Shown here: positions 6,196-63,007 of the stretch, piece after piece
How the letters are laid out: each line of letters starts with the position of its first letter
Numbering within the stretch: the first letter of the stretch is position 1
Origin: an uncultured Acidimicrobiia bacterium
GTDB lineage: Bacteria; Actinomycetota; Acidimicrobiia; Spongiisociales; UBA4744
Assembly (NCBI GenBank): GCA_964633745.1
Contig: CAZWHZ010000002.1
Span: 5,318 to 69,317 of the forward strand
Direction: 5' to 3'
Length of the DNA stretch: 64,000 nucleotides
The notes under the pieces: generated by a model
Seen by the model: only the letters and a program-made list of their open reading frames with translations
Databases searched by the model: none
What the model was told of the DNA's origin: nothing
Made by a program: the position numbers and the translations under genes

Positions 6196-6769
6196 GGTCT
6201 TCGTCCTTTTGATGCTCCGAGGAGCCTCGGAAGTTCCCGAGGTATTCGGCAAGGAGTCGCCTACCTCGATAGGTGCGCGATTTCACGGTCCCGAGGGGGA
6301 GGGTGAGGATCTCTGCAACTTCCTCGAGGGCAAGACCGTCGATGTCGACGAGCATGACGACGCCCCGGAACTCCTCCGGTATCGAGGCGAGCGCATGGAG
6401 GATGTCGGGGCGGAGTTCAACGGAGTCGAGTTGGTCGTCGACGGAGGAGTCGGGGAGATCCGATCCCTCCGGTATTGGAACGACCTGGTGTCGCTTGCGC
6501 TTCCGGAGATGGTCATGGCAGGTGTTGACCGCAACCCGATAGAGCCAAGTGGAGAACTTCGAGCGACCCGAGTACTGGCCACCCTTTCGGTAGACCGTCA
6601 AGAAGGTGTCCTGTGTGGCATCGAGCGCGTCTTCGCGGCTGCCCATCATCCGGAGGCAGAGCCCGAAGATATGGTCCTCGTGGCGTGCCATCAGCTCATC
6701 GAACGCGGCGCCATCTCCACCAAGGAAGTCTGAGAGGAGCTCTTCGTCACGGAGCAAAGCGCACCTCAC
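6188..6769 (-). CDS. ECF (group 4) RNA polymerase sigma factor, SigM-like by context
   Basis: Region 2 (FDELMARHEDHIFGLCLRMMGSREDALDATQDTFLTVY) and region 4 (IPEEFRGVVMLVDIDGLALEEVAEILTLPLGTVKSRTYRGR). The start is uncertain: GTG 6769 is chosen, and the listed ORF runs to 6886 inside the upstream gene. Confidence 0.85.
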   Translation of the reverse strand: MRCALLRDEELLSDFLGGDGAAFDELMARHEDHIFGLCLRMMGSREDALDATQDTFLTVYRKGGQYSGRSKFSTWLYRVAVNTCHDHLRKRKRHQVVPIPEGSDLPDSSVDDQLDSVELRPDILHALASIPEEFRGVVMLVDIDGLALEEVAEILTLPLGTVKSRTYRGRRLLAEYLGNFRGSSEHQKDEDHA

Positions 6770-11061: not shown

Positions 11062-12438
11062 ATGATTCCTGAACGGCTCGGGTGGCTCCTCGACCCTGAC
11101 CGCACTCCATACCAGGCATCGCGGCTGTTCGTCGAAGCCGGATTCCACCTGTACCTCGTCGGAGGGTCGGTTCGTGATCTGCTGCTCGGGCGCGAACACT
11201 CCGATCTGGACTTCACGACAGAAGCCCGACCCGAGCAGATCCTCGAGGTGGTGGACGGATGGGCAGACACGACATTCACCGTCGGAGCCCAGTTCGGCAC
11301 GATCGGAGTGGTGAAACGAGGGGTTGTGCACGAGATCACCACGTTCCGTCAGGAGGTCTATCGGGATGAGAGTCGGAAACCGACCGTCCGGTTCTCCGAC
11401 GATCTGGAGACCGATCTCTCCCGGCGAGACTTCACTGTGAACGCTGCCGCACTCGAGTTGCTGCCCGAGCCACGGATGATCGATCCACACGGTGCCCTCG
11501 CGGATCTACACGCGCACATCCTGAGGACACCGATCGGTCCGGAGATCTCCTTTTCCGACGACCCGCTCAGGATGTTGCGGCTGTTCCGTTTCATGGCGAC
11601 CCTTCAATTCGACGCGTCCACTGACGCGCTGGCCGCCGTGAGGGTCATGCACGACCGCATGAGTGTGGTTTCCGCTGAGCGAATCCGCGACGAGTTGTCC
11701 CGGTTGCTCATCGCGCCCGCTCCGAGCGAGTCCCTTGCAGCAATGGTGGACAGCGGCCTGGCGGGTGAGTTTCTCCCTGAACTGGAGGCGATCGAGGAAG
11801 CAAGAGACCCCTTTCACCGACACAAAGACGTACTCGCCCACACGCTGGCGGTTGTCGACAAGTGTCAGCCGAGGCTCCGGCTGCGTCTCGCCGCACTCCT
11901 TCACGACATCGGCAAGCCGGAGACGAGACAGTTCACTGAGGGAGGCGTGTCGTTTCACCACCACGAGGTTGTGGGCGCTCGGATGGCTCGCGCTCGCCTG
12001 CGCGCTCTCCGATTCCCGAAGAACGAGGTCGAGGACGTATCCCGGTTGGTGTTCCTTCACCTGCGGCCCCACACCTTCAAGATGGGGTGGACCGACTCCG
12101 CTGTTCGACGATATGTCCGCGACGCCGGACCGCTGCTCGAGGATCTGAATCAACTGGTCCGGTGCGACGTCACAACGAAGAATGAGGCACGGGCGAAGGC
12201 CATCCAGGAGCGGATCGACGAACTCGAGGAACGGATCACCGACTTGCGACAGAAGGAGGCAATTGACGCGCTCAGGCCGCCCATCGACGGAAACGACGTC
12301 ATGTCTTTCCTGGGAGTCGAACCGGGACCAATCGTTGGTGAAGCAATGAGGATGTTGACCGAGCACAGGATCGACCATGGCCCCTACACCGAGGAAGAGG
12401 CGTATGAACTGCTCCGACAGTGGAGAACTTCGCAGTAG
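11062..12438 (+). CDS. cca: CCA-adding enzyme / poly(A) polymerase family tRNA nucleotidyltransferase with HD domain
   Basis: LVGGSVRDLLLGR...DLDFTT nucleotidyltransferase motif plus an HD domain (HHKDVLAHT...LLHDIGKP). Same neighbourhood as mycobacterial pcnA. Confidence 0.85.
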   Translation: MIPERLGWLLDPDRTPYQASRLFVEAGFHLYLVGGSVRDLLLGREHSDLDFTTEARPEQILEVVDGWADTTFTVGAQFGTIGVVKRGVVHEITTFRQEVYRDESRKPTVRFSDDLETDLSRRDFTVNAAALELLPEPRMIDPHGALADLHAHILRTPIGPEISFSDDPLRMLRLFRFMATLQFDASTDALAAVRVMHDRMSVVSAERIRDELSRLLIAPAPSESLAAMVDSGLAGEFLPELEAIEEARDPFHRHKDVLAHTLAVVDKCQPRLRLRLAALLHDIGKPETRQFTEGGVSFHHHEVVGARMARARLRALRFPKNEVEDVSRLVFLHLRPHTFKMGWTDSAVRRYVRDAGPLLEDLNQLVRCDVTTKNEARAKAIQERIDELEERITDLRQKEAIDALRPPIDGNDVMSFLGVEPGPIVGEAMRMLTEHRIDHGPYTEEEAYELLRQWRTSQ

Positions 12439-12470
12439 TCGGTCATCGGTTCTCAGTCATCGGTAGGAAC
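12439..12470 (+). repeat. Type-1 heptad array directly after the cca stop
   Basis: TAG|TCGGTCA TCGGTTC TCAGTCA TCGGTAG GAAC. Confidence 0.8.
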
Positions 12471-12513
12471 AGCGCGGGGACCACGAGGCCGTAGGGCGCG
12501 CCTCGTCGACAGC

Positions 12514-12541
12514 CGATCGTCGGAAACCGCGAACCGCCAAC
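12514..12541 (-). repeat. Inverted partner array (CGGTT subtype)
   Basis: Plus strand CGATCGT CGGAAAC CGCGAAC CGCCAAC, which on the minus strand is GTTGGCG GTTCGCG GTTTCCG ACGATCG. Tail to tail with the array at 12439. Confidence 0.6.
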
Positions 12542-12552
12542 ACAGCAAGCCC

Positions 12553-41371: not shown

Positions 41372-41388
41372 GCCCGCTTTTGCGGGCC
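41371..41388 (+). terminator. Hairpin immediately after the dnaB stop
   Basis: GGCCCGC-TTTT-GCGGGCC, 7-bp GC stem, overlapping the last base of the TAG. Confidence 0.6.
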
Positions 41389-41391
41389 GTC

Positions 41392-41416
41392 TTGGTCATG
41401 GGTTGTCGGTAAGACC
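41392..41416 (+). repeat. Degenerate type-1 array after the dnaB terminator hairpin
   Basis: TTGGTCA TGGGTTG TCGGTAA GACC. Confidence 0.5.
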
Positions 41417-41653
41417 GTTGTCCTGGTGTCCCGTGTTGTTCGAGGTCGCGTAGGCCGGTCACAGCCTGCTGGAGGCCATCGGTACCGACCGACACCGAAA
41501 CAGGCTCCTCGTTGCACGGGCCTGTTGGCCTCTTCGTGAGTGCAGCGTAGGGGGGCTCTCGTTGCGGTAGGAGGCTGTGTGCGGCAGCTGGTCGGCTGCC
41601 GGCTGAGAGAGGCTCGCCTGGCCCTGCGGTCTGGTGTGGTTCCAGGCTGCTTG

Positions 41654-41670
41654 CTGAAGACTGAAGACTG
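41654..41670 (-). repeat. Type-1 array, inverted orientation
   Basis: Plus strand CTGAAGA CTGAAGA CTG, which on the minus strand is CAG TCTTCAG TCTTCAG. Confidence 0.65.
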
Positions 41671-41692
41671 GCGGTTCGCTTGGCGAACCGCC
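41670..41692 (+). other. Perfect 10-bp stem-loop abutting a heptad array
   Basis: GGCGGTTCGC-TTG-GCGAACCGCC directly after CTGAAGACTGAAGACTG. Confidence 0.55.
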
Positions 41693-41763
41693 GCTCGCTT
41701 GCTGTCGCGAACGGAATGGTCCGCGTATCCGATAGTGTTGAGGCATCTGATCATGGAGGACCG

Positions 41764-45343: not shown

Positions 45344-45354
45344 GTAAGGGGCAT

Positions 45355-45368
45355 CTAGTACCTCGTAT
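45355..45368 (+). repeat. Type-2 heptads 3' of fadA
   Basis: CTAGTAC CTCGTAT. GTACCTCGTA (45358-67) is the exact reverse complement of 45412-45421. Confidence 0.6.
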
Positions 45369-45411
45369 GGGCCCGGCCGCCCCGCGGTCGAAGAGCGGGT
45401 CGCGAATGTGG

Positions 45412-45424
45412 TACGAGGTACGGC
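45412..45424 (-). repeat. Type-2 heptads directly 3' of the EamA transporter gene
   Basis: Minus strand after the stop reads GCC GTACCTC GTACCAC. Confidence 0.55.
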
Positions 45425-46276
45425 TCACAACGTGAGCCTGTCGCCTCTTCCTGCCGAGATGCCTGCGGCGATCACCAACGCCACACCCACCCACGACCAC
45501 ACGTCGCCAGGCTCGGAGAGGAACACCGCGGCCCATATCACCGCGGAGGCCGGCTCGATGTAGGAGGCGATCGCGATGGTCGTGACGGGCAGGATGCTGA
45601 TCAGCGACCAGTAGATGGTCAGGCCTAATCCGGTGAGGCCGATCCCGAGGAGGGAGATCTGCCACCAGTGGGCCGGTATCTCATGAAGGGCGGACACCGC
45701 CCAGGGGGTCGAGACAACCGCGGCGACCGCCATTTGCAGTCCTGCCAGCTTCAACCCGCCCACGGCCTGAGCCGCCGGCTTGCCTATCAGAACCATCACC
45801 GCGAACGTCGCAGCAGCGATCAGGGCTGCGACGACTCCTTCGACAGTTGCTCCCCCGTGTGGGCGGGCCACCAAGATCACGCCACCGAGAGCGACGGCCA
45901 GACTCACGACCGAGCCGGCACTGAGGGGCTCTCCGAGGATCCTCGGAGAGAGGGTGGCGATCGCCACCGGACCCAGATAGACGACAACGATGGCGACGGC
46001 GACGGTGGTCGTGTCGATCGCCCAGAAGAAAGCCGCCCAATGGATCGCCAAGAGCACACCCAGGCCGGCGATGCGCGCGAGGGGGTCGGTGCGGCGCAGC
46101 CGCAGGCCCCCGCGGATGGCGAGAACGCCCAGCACCGTTAGCGCACCGAACCAGAGGCGAAGCGCTGCGAGTTGCTGAGAGGAGAGGGGTACGGATCGGA
46201 CGATCAGAGGGATGGTTCCCCATGCTGCGGCCAGAGCCGCCATGACGGCGACCAGCACAGGGCGGGATCGGTTCAT
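45425..46276 (-). CDS. EamA/DMT family transporter
   Basis: Ten hydrophobic helices in two EamA-like halves. Confidence 0.75.
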
Positions 46277-47231: not shown

Positions 47232-47526
47232 ACTGTATCAGAACGTTCCATGATGGCGCCACTCACTTCTGAGAGAGAGAGGGATTCGCAGGCATAAGTA
47301 TCTGCTCGGTCAGAAGCATTGTCGTAATAAGCCCGTCGTGATAAAGTTGAAGCATCTCCGGATAACCCCGGCGAGTTCGAACGCAAGCACCCTCGGCCAC
47401 TCCCTCCCGGCTGGGGGTGCTTCGTATACGCCTCAAGTTGTGGCGATTCCCTGCCGATATGAACGACGGCAGCGTCCTCGAAGAGAGCACTACGGAGTCC
47501 CCCTTCCTCCAACTCGCCGAGGACTG

Positions 47527-47556
47527 CAGGAACCCCCGGGATACCGGGGGTTCCTG
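47527..47556 (+). other. Perfect 13-bp stem-loop 25 nt upstream of surE
   Basis: CAGGAACCCCCGG-GATA-CCGGGGGTTCCTG. Confidence 0.6.
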
Positions 47557-47580
47557 CCGTTCCGGGTACCCTCTCCGGCG

Positions 47581-48345
47581 ATGGGGTACCTCCTGGTGAC
47601 CAACGACGATGGTGTCGACTCTCCCGCGCTGCTTCCGTTTGTCCGGGCGTTGCAGGACATCGAGGAGGTGAAAGTGGTGGTGCCCGACCGGGAACGAAGC
47701 TGGATCGGGAAGGCCATTACCCGTTTCGGGGAGATCAACGTTACGAGGATCGTGCGTGACGGGGTCGAGATAGCGGTCGCCGATGGGTTCCCTGCCGACT
47801 GCACCCAGCTCGGTGTGCACTCCCTGTTCGGGGAGCCGCCGGAGATGGTCGTCTCGGGAATCAACATCGGTCTCAACGACAGCCTTGCCTTCTTCCTTTC
47901 GAGCGGGACCGCGGGGGCTGCTGCTGAGGGTTGGATCGCCGGTATTCCTGCGATTGCCTTTTCTACAGGCGTGGCACATGATCATCGGAGTTGGGCGAAG
48001 CGCGTGTGGGCGGGCGAGGAGCCTGAGCAATGGGTTCGCGCAGCCGCGGTGAGCGCGGATATCGTTGCGACAACTCGGCGAGATGGCTTCCCTGGAGCGG
48101 ATCTCTTGAACGTGAACTTCGACACGAACGCCACGATCGACACGCCCCGGGTGTTCACCGACCTCGCCAAAGTCGGATACGACCGGATCTTCAGGGAGGT
48201 GCGGCCCGGCGTCTTCATCCACGACTTCTCGACCGGATTACGGGTGCAAGGTGACCTGTCGGGAACGGATGTCGAGGCCGTCGGAAACGGGCTCGTGTCG
48301 ATCACACCGGTTCGCCTCGCCCACGCGGTGAGGCTCACTCCGTGA
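47581..48345 (+). CDS. surE: 5'/3'-nucleotidase SurE
   Basis: MGYLLVTNDDGVDSPAL N-terminus (the DD metal site) and GINIGLN. Start at ATG 47581 inside the listed ORF 47338..48345. Confidence 0.85.
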   Translation: MGYLLVTNDDGVDSPALLPFVRALQDIEEVKVVVPDRERSWIGKAITRFGEINVTRIVRDGVEIAVADGFPADCTQLGVHSLFGEPPEMVVSGINIGLNDSLAFFLSSGTAGAAAEGWIAGIPAIAFSTGVAHDHRSWAKRVWAGEEPEQWVRAAAVSADIVATTRRDGFPGADLLNVNFDTNATIDTPRVFTDLAKVGYDRIFREVRPGVFIHDFSTGLRVQGDLSGTDVEAVGNGLVSITPVRLAHAVRLTP

Positions 48346-48346
48346 G

Positions 48347-48377
48347 CCGGTTTTCGGTTCTCAGTTTCCGGTAGGAC
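48347..48377 (+). repeat. Type-1 heptad array 1 nt after the surE stop
   Basis: CCGGTTT TCGGTTC TCAGTTT CCGGTAG GAC. Confidence 0.8.
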
Positions 48378-48493
48378 GCCCATTCTGCTTGTTCCCCGGC
48401 CGCGTGCTCACCGAAGACCGATGACTGACAAGAACCGCGAGCGAAGCAAGCACTCGCCCCGCGGTCTTGCGTTGTTCTGCGTCGCGTTCCACC

Positions 48494-48521
48494 TGATGAC
48501 TGAAGATTGAGGGCTTGAGGC
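48494..48521 (-). repeat. Degenerate type-1 array, inverted
   Basis: Plus strand TGATGAC TGAAGAT TGAGGGC TTGAGGC. Confidence 0.55.
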
Positions 48522-48553
48522 TCTCAGAGCGAGTCGGGCCATTCCGCGAGACC

Positions 48554-48606
48554 TTCGGCTCCCGGTTCGCCGTTCTCGGTTGCCGGTTCCGGGTTCTCGG
48601 TAAGAC
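48554..48606 (+). repeat. Type-1 (CGGTT subtype) array, seven units
   Basis: TTCGGCT CCCGGTT CGCCGTT CTCGGTT GCCGGTT CCGGGTT CTCGGTA AGAC. Confidence 0.8.
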
Positions 48607-48648
48607 ACTCGCCCTACGGTCTCGTGTTCTTCTGCGTCGCGTTCTCAC

Positions 48649-48682
48649 CGATGACTGAAGACTGAGGACTGAAGACTGTTCT
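48649..48682 (-). repeat. Type-1 heptad array abutting the dcd stop
   Basis: Minus strand after the TGA reads AGAACAG TCTTCAG TCCTCAG TCTTCAG TCATCGG TGAGAAC. Confidence 0.85.
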
Positions 48683-49264
48683 TCAGAAATCCAGATGGAT
48701 TCTGCTGGGGGTTGGTCCTCGCTGGCCCTGGTACTTGCCGACGTCCCCGTAAGGGTGTTCGGCCGGTGTTGTCAGCTCGTAGAACGAGATCTGCCCGATC
48801 TTCATGCCCGGATAGATCGCGATCGGCAGCTTGGCGACGTTCGACAGCTCGAGGGTGAGGTAGCCGTCGAAGCCAGGATCGACGAACCCGGCGGTCGAGT
48901 GGATCAGCAGGCCCAACCTGCCGAGACTCGACTTGCCTTCAAGGCGTGCCACGACATCGTTGCCCAGGCGAACGCGTTCGAGGGTCGATCCGAGTACGAA
49001 CTCGCCTGGATGGAGGATGAACGGCTCGTTCTCCGAAGTCTCCACCAACGTGGTCAGATCGTCCTGCAGCTGTTTGGGATCGATCTGGGGGTATCGGTGA
49101 TTCTCGAAGACGCGAAAGAAACGGTCGACTCGGAGGTCAACGCTCGACGGTTGTACGAAAGACTCGTCGAAGGGATCGATGAGAATCCGGCCGGCCTTGA
49201 GTGCTTCCTTGATGGTTCGGTCCGAGAAAATCACGTGGCCCTCCTCCGTAGGATGGTAGATCAC
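48683..49264 (-). CDS. dcd: dCTP deaminase
   Basis: [25 protein letters not shown] and GQISF motifs. GTG 49234 is an alternative start. Confidence 0.9.
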
Positions 49265-55561: not shown

Positions 55562-55589
55562 GGAGGTCCGGCTTGGCCGGACCTCCTTT
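55562..55589. terminator. Bidirectional hairpin terminator between bS22 and the DUF5362-like gene
   Basis: GGAGGTCCGGC-TTG-GCCGGACCTCC (11-bp stem) followed by TTT. Lies between convergent genes. Confidence 0.7.
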
Positions 55590-58695: not shown

Positions 58696-58710
58696 GAGGT
58701 TCTACAGCTT

Positions 58711-58729
58711 ACCCCACCCGGGGTGGGGT
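58711..58729. promoter_or_regulatory. Probable CsoR operator
   Basis: ACCCCAC-CCGGG-GTGGGGT, a G/C-tract inverted repeat 16 nt upstream of the csoR ATG. Resembles the known CsoR box style (TACCC-N-GGGTA). Confidence 0.65.
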
Positions 58730-58833
58730 GGGGAAAACGACCATGAGTGAGGCCCCGGAGGAGGGGACTTCCGGGGCCTCGAACCGGCGCCTGGGTGGAG
58801 GGGGGAACTGGGGCGCCGAGATGTGGTCTTGTC

Positions 58834-59028
58834 TCACGTGCCTTCGGGGACGACCCTGCCGCGCACACGAGGAAAACGAACTGGAGCGTGGGTGTAGCAG
58901 TACTCACGCCGGTTGTACATCGAGAGACGGGTGTCGCAACCCTTCTCGGCACACACTCTGTCTTCACCGTACTTGCGGGACGGCCGTAGACCGCCTTTGA
59001 GTCGTGCGCCTTTCAGTGTGTCAGCCAT
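58834..59028 (-). CDS. Small basic protein with a putative zinc-ribbon (64 aa)
   Basis: ORF with CAEKGC...YCYTH (C-x4-C ... C-x2-H). Lies upstream of and co-oriented with csoR. Family not recognised. Confidence 0.45.
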   Translation of the reverse strand: MADTLKGARLKGGLRPSRKYGEDRVCAEKGCDTRLSMYNRREYCYTHAPVRFPRVRGRVVPEGT

Positions 59029-59218
59029 GTTGCCCTCTGTCTCGTGGGAGGAGTGCCGGATACGCTACCCGACCCTCTTTGGGATTGCACCTATATCGAC
59101 GTTCTGAATGGTGTTTTTATTCCGCGATCACGATTCTGTCAAGCAAAGTGTGCGCGATGAAGGTGAACAGGGCGTGAACGCCCCCTAAAGAAATCGTGAG
59201 AATTGGCGGGCTCCGCCC

Positions 59219-59250
59219 GCAGTCTTCAGTCTTCAGTCCTCAGTAGGGAG
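59219..59250 (+). repeat. Type-1 heptad array with no upstream plus-strand gene
   Basis: GCAGTCT TCAGTCT TCAGTCC TCAGTAG GGAGC, preceded by the small hairpin GGCGG-GCT-CCGCC. Confidence 0.85.
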
Positions 59251-59341
59251 CACGACCTGGAGCAACGCGAGATTGAGGGGCGTTCCTCTTCGGATAGCTG
59301 ACAGCCGAGAACTCACGACCAGCTCACGAAGCGAGCCTCCC

Positions 59342-59376
59342 ACCGAAAACCGAGAACCGAAAACCGAGAACCCCCG
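59342..59376 (-). repeat. Inverted CGGTT-subtype array ending 20 nt upstream of the SDR start
   Basis: Plus strand ACCGAAA ACCGAGA ACCGAAA ACCGAGA ACCCCCG. This is a perfect 14-nt unit repeated twice. Confidence 0.85.
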
Positions 59377-59395
59377 AGCCGCTACCGTGCGGCCC

Positions 59396-62907: not shown

Positions 62908-63007
62908 GTTGGATGACTCTAGGTCATCTTCTACAAAGGGAGGAGGCCACCCGTAGGGTGACCTCCTCGGCCGGCCCGGAGACGAGTCTCCGCCAGGGAC
63001 GGCCGGC

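Follow-up and report, generated by a model that had tools for sequence, protein, structure and literature searches.

Heptamer-armed, strand-asymmetric repeat units in the convergent surE/dcd gap of an uncultured Acidimicrobiia bacterium

In a 64-kb stretch of DNA from an uncultured Acidimicrobiia bacterium (the whole of which is called the window below), the 337-bp gap between the stop codons of the convergent genes surE and dcd consists of three head-to-tail copies of a composite unit, in which a pyrimidine-rich and a purine-rich array of heptamers enclose a non-repetitive core. The unit has been duplicated in tandem, belongs to a family with further copies in the window, differs between the two strands in the complementarity of its arms, and is conserved in two relatives. 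As a tentative explanation, quite possible if short of probable, we propose that the gap is a cluster of RNA hairpin units at convergent 3' ends, akin to the bacterial interspersed mosaic elements (BIMEs), which has been resized by slippage, enlarged by duplication of units and kept by selection for plus-strand folding that blocks read-through or 3' exonucleases.

Results

Three head-to-tail units between surE and dcd

A preliminary description of this DNA had recognised four heptad arrays and a 62-bp direct repeat in the gap. The period-7 signal on which the arrays rest lies far above that of shuffled sequence: lag-7 identity is 0.424 over the gap, compared with 0.263 ± 0.024 in 1000 shuffles (shuffle maximum 0.355). 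The signal recurs as harmonics at lags 14 and 21, and other lags show none. The four named arrays reach lag-7 identities of 0.54, 0.62, 0.61 and 0.70, and Tandem Repeats Finder calls only the last two of them (48555-48601 and 48653-48678; period 7/14/21). Among periods of 4 to 14, only period 7 gives several strong non-coding arrays in the window as a whole. The direct repeat (48451-48512 and 48606-48667) is identical at exactly the 52 of 62 positions first counted, whereas the best of 300 shuffles of the gap reaches 35 (mean 29.7), and self-alignment extends it without gaps to 72 nt at 81% identity (48451-48522 and 48606-48677). The tandem duplication of a composite unit of array, spacer and inverted array that had been proposed on these grounds holds, and is seen best in the orthologous gap of a relative, L001, with two complete head-to-tail units. 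Two points had to be amended. The gap holds three tandem copies and not two, the third being the stretch 48378-48450 that had been left unassigned; and the parts originally named cover about 69% of the gap, which is built nearly throughout from arrays and repeat copies only once this degenerate third unit is added.

Each unit is composed of a pyrimidine-rich arm, (GGTTYTC)3-6 with GGTARGA as its last heptad, then a core of 45-60 nt (up to 85 nt when all copies are counted) with the motif CGCCCNNCGGTCT, and a purine-rich arm that opens with CCGATGACTGA and continues as (GACTGAR)n, with two to four heptads. The sole widely shared stretch of the core is CGCCCNNCGG(T/C)CT, with four matches in the window against 0.27 expected. 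The pyrimidine-rich arms end in GGTAGGA, GGTAAGA or GGTGGGA (CGGTARGAS has four matches against 1.08 expected). Compared with the GT[AG]G head that is recognised by the tyrosine transposases (RAYTs) associated with repetitive extragenic palindromic (REP) sequences, this ending is placed at the inner and not the outer end of the arm.

Unit 1 (48347-48436) is degenerate. On the plus strand, its pyrimidine-rich arm (48347-48377; GGTTTTC GGTTCTC AGTTTCC GGTAGGA) is followed by a degenerate core and a short purine-rich arm CCGATGACTGACAAG (48378-48436; GGTTCTT GTCAGTC ATCGGTC TTCGGTG when read on the minus strand), with the CCGATGACTGA motif at 48418. The evidence for this unit is the 86% identity of 48401-48428 to 48638-48665 and a match of 48356-48428 to a hidden Markov model (HMM) of the unit. 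Unit 2 (48451-48522) has no left arm, which is replaced by a terminator-like hairpin on the minus strand, GCGAGTG-CTTGCTT-CGCTCGC and then GGTTCTTGTC (48437-48457; pattern scan and folding). It is copy A of the direct repeat on the plus strand, with its core (CACTCGCCCCGCGGTCT...TTCTGCGTCGCGTTC) and a purine-rich arm at 48494-48521 (GACTGAA GATTGAG GGCTTGAG). A linker (48523-48553), across whose left edge lies the palindrome GCTCTCAGAGC (48519-48529), leads to unit 3 (48554-48682), which is complete and lies on the plus strand. Its pyrimidine-rich arm comprises six GGTTC-type heptads and ends in CGGTAAGAC (48554-48606; Tandem Repeats Finder, lag-7 identity and duplex energy); copy B of the direct repeat (48606-48677) contains its core (CACTCGCCCTACGGTCT...TTCTGCGTCGCGTTC) and the start of its right arm; and the purine-rich arm GATGACT GAAGACT GAGGACT GAAGACT G (48649-48682) reads on the minus strand as AGTCTTC AGTCCTC AGTCTTC AGTCATC, directly after the dcd stop. 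The direction of the arms along the gap is +, -, (lost), -, +, -, and the linker is collinear in the relatives L001 and L002; units alternate around conserved linkers, as they do in BIMEs.

Both flanking genes are real and convergent. The coding sequence of surE (47581-48345, plus strand; SurE, 5'/3'-nucleotidase) matches Pfam PF01975 (E 7e-43), and its translation is 100% identical to a protein on record (P0001, JGI metagenome); that of dcd (48683-49264, minus strand; dCTP deaminase) matches PF22769 (E 3.5e-50). The outermost arrays do touch the stops, as had been noted: the surE TGA is at 48343-48345 and its array runs from 48347, and the last array runs to 48682, with the dcd stop at 48683-48685. 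The arrays are intergenic and non-coding in the manner of heptamer simple sequence repeats of the STRR type. Each gene has, in addition, a small hairpin at its stop. A terminator-like GC hairpin, GGCTCAC-TCC-GTGAGCC, lies across the surE stop and is followed by GGTTTTCGGT (48332-48348, plus strand; pattern scan, and also in the whole-gap fold), and CTGAAGA-ACAG-TCTTCAG (48669-48686, minus strand; inverted repeat and folds) includes the dcd stop codon and is kept in L001 and L002. The layout of an intrinsic terminator fits the small hairpins at 48332-48348 and, on the minus strand, 48457-48437; the units have cores of 45-85 nt and no U tract.

Searches for other kinds of element at this locus were negative. 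No sigma-70-like promoter is found on either strand of 47900-49200, and Rfam gives no match in the gap at the gathering score or at E <= 10, and none at any unit of the window at E <= 1. Small proteins were considered and rejected: the open reading frames of 47 aa (plus strand) and of 95 and 66 aa (minus strand) in the gap do not survive in L001 and L002, where indels of 1, 7 and 14 nt disrupt them.

The arms are complementary as RNA on one strand

The preliminary description had treated the arrays as inverted pairs. The arms are indeed inverse, yet one heptad is not simply the other turned round: the reverse complement of GACTGAG is CTCAGTC, or AGTCCTC once brought into register, and GGTTCTC departs from it at two positions per heptad, both of them transitions. 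On one RNA strand these transitions give two G·U pairs and complete pairing. In the GGUUYUC to GACUGAR orientation, both CGGUUCU/AGGACUG and CGGUUUU/AAGACUG pair at seven of seven positions with two G·U pairs each, whereas the complementary strand has two C·A mismatches per heptad in their place.

We scored arm-against-arm RNA duplex energies against shuffles. The outermost arms of the gap (48347-48377 with 48646-48684) form a duplex of -34.2 kcal/mol on the plus strand (z -4.2; matched by 0 of 500 shuffles) and of -16.5 kcal/mol on the minus strand (z -0.5). For the arms of unit 3 the values are -32.0 kcal/mol (z -2.2) on the plus and -19.9 (z 0.06) on the minus strand, and for the first unit of L001, -29.0 on the favoured strand versus -8.6 on the other. 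The independent copy at 59.2-59.4 kb, which lies in the opposite orientation, behaves in the same way, with -46.0 kcal/mol (z -4.3) on the minus and -19.1 on the plus strand, and its RNA folds into one long hairpin of -82 kcal/mol versus -51 for the other strand. In these models the arms pair as RNA only on the GGTTYTC to GACTGAR strand, by way of G·U pairs. The arrays are paired and convergent like those described in Xanthomonas, inverse bar two transitions per unit and with a duplex that is significant on one strand. A single-stranded DNA or cruciform structure was considered and is not supported: folding of the 59-kb copy with DNA parameters gives z -0.1 and +1.7, no better than shuffles. 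A strong RNA duplex on one strand, together with a DNA fold at the level of shuffles, argues for RNA and against a cruciform or single-stranded DNA. Arm complementarity is kept even where the heptad type is new, as with UCGUACC/GGUACGA in the surE/dcd gap of the relative L202 and GUACUUC/GAAGUAC in that of L204.

Conservation of units and turnover between relatives

The relatives include metagenome-assembled genomes labelled 'uncultured Acidimicrobiia bacterium', with a SurE 86% identical to that of the window, and about 250 kb of relatives' DNA was compared. In L001 (SurE 86% identical), the surE/dcd gap contains two clean complete units, (GGTTYTC)n-GGTAAGAC-core-(GATGACTGA...)n, arranged head to tail and joined by the same linker, of 37 nt. 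Unit 3 with its linker (48517-48682) aligns with L001 at 142 of 152 positions (0.93), and the two units of the dnaB-fadB gap do so at 0.94-0.95. Four-fold degenerate sites, by comparison, are 0.64 identical over all genes (1762 sites), 0.52 in surE and 0.44 in dcd, and other intergenic DNA gives 0.82 (lysR-surE divergent gap), 0.68 (dcd-ECH divergent gap) and 0.54 (thiolase/eamA gap, where the unit has been replaced). With 93% identity next to genes whose four-fold sites retain 44-52%, unit 3 looks selected. Identity is higher between orthologous units (0.92-0.93) than between paralogous ones (0.70-0.86), which favours descent with constraint over recent transposition, and the coding ends that adjoin the units show ordinary divergence, which makes recent recombination or transposition a poorer explanation than constraint. 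The half of the gap next to surE is not conserved in L001, the differences being mostly indels.

A further conserved stretch lies outside the gap. The roughly 240 nt that precede the real start of surE (47339-47580) are 0.86-0.91 identical to L001 in spite of the value of 0.52 at surE four-fold sites. The open reading frame that crosses them (GTG at 47338) is rich in Arg and Pro and has the look of non-coding sequence, and Rfam has no match; the stretch may be a conserved leader or a regulatory RNA.

That the element would persist in orthologous gaps was borne out in L001 and L002 and not in the other relatives of similar distance, which have other units, an inverted unit or no gap; heptad arrays as such are present in the surE/dcd gap of every relative examined except L005. 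L002 (SurE 86%) has the two units of L001, split by an 848-bp segment. In L201 (SurE 89%) the gap is 85 nt long with just a short GATGACT array, and in L003 and L004 (SurE 85% and 83%) it is unrelated sequence with other heptads. L202 (SurE 86%) carries a unit of another subtype, with arms GTACCTCGTA/TACGAGGTAC that form perfect pairs and the core GGCCGCCCCGCGGTC; L204 (SurE 84%) carries this GTAC subtype inverted; and in L005 (SurE 75%) there is no gap, the stops being 5 nt apart. The comparison indicates that whole units are gained, lost, replaced and inverted between relatives. Copy number also varies within units, as expected of slippage: the right arm of unit 3 has four heptads in the window versus two in L001, and an array at 41.6 kb (below) differs in length among three genomes. 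Considered as MITEs (transposable elements of the miniature inverted-repeat type), the units have inverted arms that are, however, arrays, and the filled, replaced and empty (L005) gaps of the relatives are too diverged to define boundaries or target-site duplications.

Two side observations concern these gaps. The 848-bp segment of L002 (10890-11737), which is present neither in the window nor in L001, has 23-nt inverted ends (87% complementary) and sits inside a GATGACTG arm between the two surE/dcd units; it encodes a 243-aa open reading frame with a lipoprotein-like signal peptide (…LVLVASC…) and no transposase. At L004:10036-10065 (GACGACTGACGACTGA) and L202:3760-3775 (GGTACCTAG), the surE coding sequence runs at its 3' end into a heptad array, which supplies the stop.

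A family of units in the window

Heptads of both arms are enriched in the window (15 matches to GACTGAR against 1.07 expected, and 13 of the CGGTTCT type against 1.66), with arrays at 3.9, 12.4, 26.4, 31.3, 41.4-41.7, 45.4, 48.3-48.7, 50.1 and 59.2-59.4 kb. A search with an HMM built from ten copies recovers eight units in the window together with their orthologues, and none in 120 metagenome loci from other taxa among the matches listed. The order of parts is always pyrimidine-rich arm, core and purine-rich arm, which reads alike on both strands. Copies beyond the tandem cluster have nothing in common but the arm type and a 13-nt motif; near-identical dispersed copies are absent from the 64 kb and the approximately 250 kb of relatives, where only tandem and orthologous copies exceed 70% identity.

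In a census that used a rough gene map, with the key flanking genes verified by Pfam, 5-6 of about 11 convergent gaps contain strong arrays, versus 2 of about 29 other gaps, an enrichment at convergent 3' ends of the kind known for REPs and BIMEs. Ten genes have an array no further than about 30 nt from their stop, and in all ten this array is pyrimidine-rich, or at least not purine-rich, when read on the sense strand. Two convergent gaps that have no unit (55562-55586 and 62940-62968) contain compact perfect or near-perfect GC hairpins of 11 and 13 bp, presumably the ordinary terminators of this genome.

In the gap where csoR-copZ-copA and an SDR gene diverge, the copy at 59202-59385 (minus strand) comprises (GGTTYTC)4-GGTGGGAGG, an 85-nt core and (GACTGAR)3, then a GC hairpin, GCGGGCGGAGCCCGC. 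This gap of 700 nt (58696-59394; SDR start at 59395) also contains a promoter-like TTGACA...TAAAAA stretch near 59140-59115 and, just upstream of csoR (58702-58824, minus strand), a weak Rfam match to the alphaproteobacterial small RNA ar14 (33 bits with a gathering score of 58.8, E 0.019) that is probably due to chance. Two units occupy the gap between dnaB and a fadB-like gene (41372-41700, plus strand), the second of which combines the core GCCCTGCGGTCT with an arm of (CTGAAGA)2, after which comes a GC hairpin. Within this gap, a (GGCTGTG/GGCTGCC)n array has 2-3 units in the window (41560-41640), five in L001 (4032-4073) and four in L002 (3998-4033), in flanking non-repetitive sequence that is 95% identical; it is a clean case of heptamer copy-number change within a conserved element. 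A diverged copy in the cca/asd gap (12425-12550, minus strand) retains the core CGCCCTACGGCCT and the CCGATGACTGA motif, and a partial copy (26421-26500, minus strand; HMM and Pfam) has an (AGTCTTC)2 AGTCCTC arm directly after the stop of a DUF4388 gene on the plus strand. The GTAC subtype seen in L202, with the same arms and core, fills the convergent thiolase/eamA gap of the window (45345-45425, plus strand) as well as those of L002 and L202; L001 has an (ACAGCAA)n/(GCTGTCR)n hairpin there instead.

Heptad-armed hairpins in other bacteria

A scan of metagenomes with GACTGARGACTGARGACT matched at least 120 contigs with GC contents of 0.28-0.72. Many of the matches listed (L081-L200) take the hairpin form (GACTGAG)n-loop-(CTCAGTC)n and stand immediately behind stop codons on unrelated contigs, and dozens of other heptads occur as inverted array pairs among them, with perfect pairs at many loci. 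These many contigs and heptads indicate that heptad-armed hairpins are a general phenomenon. Because (GACTGAG)n has TGA in all three frames and CTCAGTC has no stops, stop-to-stop open reading frame calls are biased and the position of arrays relative to their ends is confounded; we therefore used the count of arm orders alone, in which (GACTGAG)n comes first in 14 cases versus two of the reverse among the matches listed, the opposite of the order in this clade. The array also carries GAGG every 7 nt; it supplies the stop in L193 and L101 and lies just before a start codon in L098 and L163. Inverted pairs occur at L107:4289-4397 and 6248-6344, L098:1-155, L059:11085-11277 and L196:9202-9300, with examples such as the telomere-like GGGTTAG/CTAACCC, CGGTCTA/GACCGAA, GAGATAC/CTCGCAA and GAAGTAC/GTACTTC. 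In some metagenome pairs the RNA duplex is strongly asymmetric between strands (-69 vs -37 in L059 and -71 vs -37 in L088).

Discussion

Our tentative explanation would run as follows. Slippage of heptamers would change the length of the arms, and tandem duplication of whole units would have produced the cluster before the window split from L001 and L002. The unit would act as RNA of the GGUUYUC...GACUGAR strand, in which pairing of the arms could form a long, imperfect hairpin that encloses the core, and pairing of the outermost arms could close the whole 337-nt gap. Situated between the stop-codon hairpins of surE and dcd, the units would most likely serve as a 3'-end structure against read-through or exonucleases, as REPs and BIMEs do in Escherichia coli. 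Complementarity that depends on G·U pairs would retain the RNA hairpin and avoid a long perfect palindrome in the DNA. We infer that the gap is transcribed and folds in vivo, where it would terminate or stabilise transcripts.

Several observations weigh against this explanation. When both strands are folded, as had been suggested, the significance of the plus-strand arm duplex does not carry over to longer regions: minimum free energies (MFEs) of whole units and of the whole gap are only weakly better than those of dinucleotide shuffles (z -0.2 to -2.2; whole gap -1.1 on the plus and +0.3 on the minus strand), and for this reason we relied on the arm-against-arm test. The MFE structure of unit 3 with its upstream flank has no pairing between the arrays and encloses the left arm in a different stem. 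An RNAalifold consensus of ten copies is weak (-5 kcal/mol) and has arm-closing pairs only, the orthologues being too few and too similar for covariation statistics; the copies are also too few and too heterogeneous for a covariance model, so none was built. The 59-kb unit lies downstream of no gene, a misfit with a simple 3'-end role, and the favoured strand of the 12.5-kb unit is antisense to both flanking genes, though the asymmetry there is not significant. Convergent gaps that have no unit use plain GC hairpins, and surE and dcd have small hairpins of their own, from which it follows that the units are not needed for termination as such. Finally, L201, with a SurE 89% identical, lacks these units, which makes any constraint lineage-specific.

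The same architecture could be that of a selfish family. The units would then be mobile or duplicative elements, like MITEs or REP doublets (REPINs), that accumulate in the no man's land between convergent terminators, and their polarity and core would be recognised by a transposase or recombinase and serve no host function. BIME-like clusters of alternating units, placed between gene-proximal hairpins and containing an enriched core motif (four matches versus 0.27), speak for this. So do the occurrence of the GTAC subtype in two gaps, thiolase/eamA (window, L002 and L202) and surE/dcd (L202, and inverted in L204), and the unrelated units that sister lineages carry in one and the same gap (L001 versus the window at 45.3 kb; L003, L004 and L201 at surE/dcd). 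Yet near-identical dispersed copies, target-site duplications and a transposase are not seen, although the genome was not searched for the last; only the arm type and the 13-nt motif are common to copies outside the tandem cluster; orthologous units are closer to each other than paralogous ones; and the single-stranded DNA hairpin is no more stable than shuffles. An origin from phage was rejected, as no exact match to the core occurs in viral contigs. On balance a selfish family seems to us unlikely, if conceivable. Neutral origin is less probable than that: microsatellites made by slippage, with arms homogenised by quasi-palindrome template switching and tolerated where constraint is lowest, would account for copy numbers that vary among close relatives (2-3, 5 and 4 units at 41.6 kb; four versus two in the right arm of unit 3), for the many indels in the surE-proximal half of the gap, and for the general excess of intergenic heptamers in prokaryotes, which earlier work attributes to slippage (PMC4692102; bioRxiv 10.1101/309039). 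It is made improbable by the identity of unit 3 (93%) and of the dnaB-fadB units (94-95%) relative to four-fold sites (44-67%), by the transition-only difference between left and right arms that recurs at independent loci, and by the conservation of a core motif that is not repetitive.

Two other functional explanations place the activity elsewhere. Discrete small RNA genes on the plus strand of the gap, with the arms as terminal stem, would agree with a conserved, non-coding unit whose pairing is strand-specific, and with the 59-kb copy, which has a GC hairpin at its end and sits in a divergent gap, downstream of no gene. The absence of any promoter-like site on either strand of 47900-49200 and of any Rfam match even at E <= 10, together with an orientation relative to the flanking genes that varies by lineage (L202 versus L204), leaves little room for such genes, and a separate transcription start is hard to place because the arms begin 2 nt past the surE stop. 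The heptads could also be tandem protein sites on nascent RNA, either for a cold-shock-domain protein with a 7-nt footprint, one per heptad, or for Rho on UC-rich RNA, with the purine-rich arm competing by pairing. This would account for the period of 7, and the pyrimidine-rich arm does come first after the stop in ten of ten genes. The consensus of 50 window heptads, G-T-(C/T)-Y-T-C-R, resembles the heptanucleotide bound by Bacillus subtilis CspB, GTCTTTG/T, in which C is preferred at position 3 and T at 2, 4 and 6 (PMC1904285); CspB has been crystallised with GUCUUUA (PMC7825780), and cold-shock proteins (Csps) have already been proposed as readers of TAACTGA repeats (PMC4679880). We nevertheless regard protein sites as distinctly unlikely. 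The resemblance is a literature lead and not a test, and the register was set to put GT first, which biases positions 1 and 2; the conserved core and the matched purine-rich arms are left unexplained; and heptads of other phyla (GGGAATC, TTTTGAA) do not fit the motif. A tblastn search with E. coli CspA finds no csp gene in the window or in the relatives' loci, which is uninformative either way. More speculative still, and very improbable, is an extension in which heptad-armed units form a selected, widespread class of RNA read heptad by heptad by cold-shock-domain proteins: binding of the single-stranded pyrimidine-rich arm (GUCUUCA / GGUUCUC, near the CspB optimum GUCUUUG/U) would oppose closure of the hairpin, and read-through or 3'-end stability would track Csp level or temperature. 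If true, such reading would give a physical reason why the intergenic tandem repeat that is commonest in prokaryotes has a prime-number period, 7, for which an explanation has been lacking since STRR repeats were described.

Among known systems, the architecture of the cluster appears closest to that of the E. coli BIMEs. REPs and BIMEs stabilise upstream mRNA and attenuate transcription; REPs have unique arms of 20-40 nt, occur in hundreds of near-identical copies and are tied to the RAYT transposase. Like REPs, BIMEs and REPINs, the units are extragenic imperfect palindromes at 3' ends and in convergent gaps, with alternating clusters, conserved linkers and tandem growth, and with a family that is kept as its sites turn over. 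They differ in arms that are heptamer arrays, in a spacer of 45-85 nt with a motif of its own, and in that near-identical copies are not seen in the limited DNA available. With bidirectional intrinsic terminators they share the position of a hairpin-forming sequence directly after both stops of a convergent pair, as do the (GACTGAG)n-loop-(CTCAGTC)n hairpins across phyla, but the units differ in having a long core where terminators have a short loop, in their imperfect arms and in the lack of A/U tracts on either side, and each gene has its own compact stop hairpin.

The cyanobacterial heptanucleotide STRR repeats, short tandemly repeated repetitive sequences with the units CCCCAGT, TTGGTCA and CAACAGT, were reportedly described by Mazel et al. 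in 1990, and heptamer repeats of Nostoc affect reporter expression. Many bacteria have an excess of heptamer repeats in their intergenic DNA, for reasons unexplained (bioRxiv 10.1101/309039; PMC4692102). In Xanthomonas, 70-75 convergent pairs of GGGAATC arrays per genome form inverted repeats, most of which are transcribed and whose function is unexplained (Rehm et al. 2015, PMC4692102); these GGGAATC and the Nostoc GGGGAYT heptamers occur genome-wide in 2-26 units, and their position and single or paired type are mostly kept between species as length varies (PMC4692102). TAACTGA repeats are known from Beggiatoaceae, cyanobacteria and Bacteroidetes, with cold-shock proteins, S1 and CsrA as proposed readers (MacGregor 2015, PMC4679880), and the Beggiatoa arrays comprise 169 direct sets and one indirect, just upstream of start codons (PMC4679880). 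The units share with the Xanthomonas and Nostoc repeats tandem intergenic heptamers scattered over the genome and, with those of Xanthomonas, inverted pairs. The heptad there is a different, G-rich one, studied as a G-quadruplex former and in another phylum, and no conserved non-repetitive core, G·U asymmetry of arms or tandem duplication of whole pairs has been described for it. STRR and TAACTGA repeats are likewise intergenic head-to-tail heptamers of unexplained function, with some likeness in sequence (CCCCAGT is GTCCCCA and TAACTGA inverted is GTTATCA, compared with GTCCTCA and GTCTTCA here). Beggiatoa has direct arrays upstream of starts, whereas here paired arrays lie at 3' ends around a conserved core. 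A literature search for heptamer repeats in Acidimicrobiia or Actinobacteria, or for GACTGAR/GGTTYTC arrays, returned no relevant report.

The three units are a well-preserved local case of the known excess of intergenic 7-base repeats in bacteria. What is new relative to known paired heptamer arrays is the conserved core, the strand-specific G·U design, the tandem duplication of units and a clear signal of constraint. The Xanthomonas catalogue of paired arrays came with no mechanism, and this locus makes an old puzzle testable, since it offers a defined unit anatomy, evidence of purifying selection and a strand-specific G·U complementarity that names the strand to probe. If the units were selfish BIME-like elements, they would be the first such family with microsatellite arms. 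With array-loop-inverted-array hairpins found over GC contents of 0.28-0.72, often right after stop codons, any mechanism established here would probably generalise.

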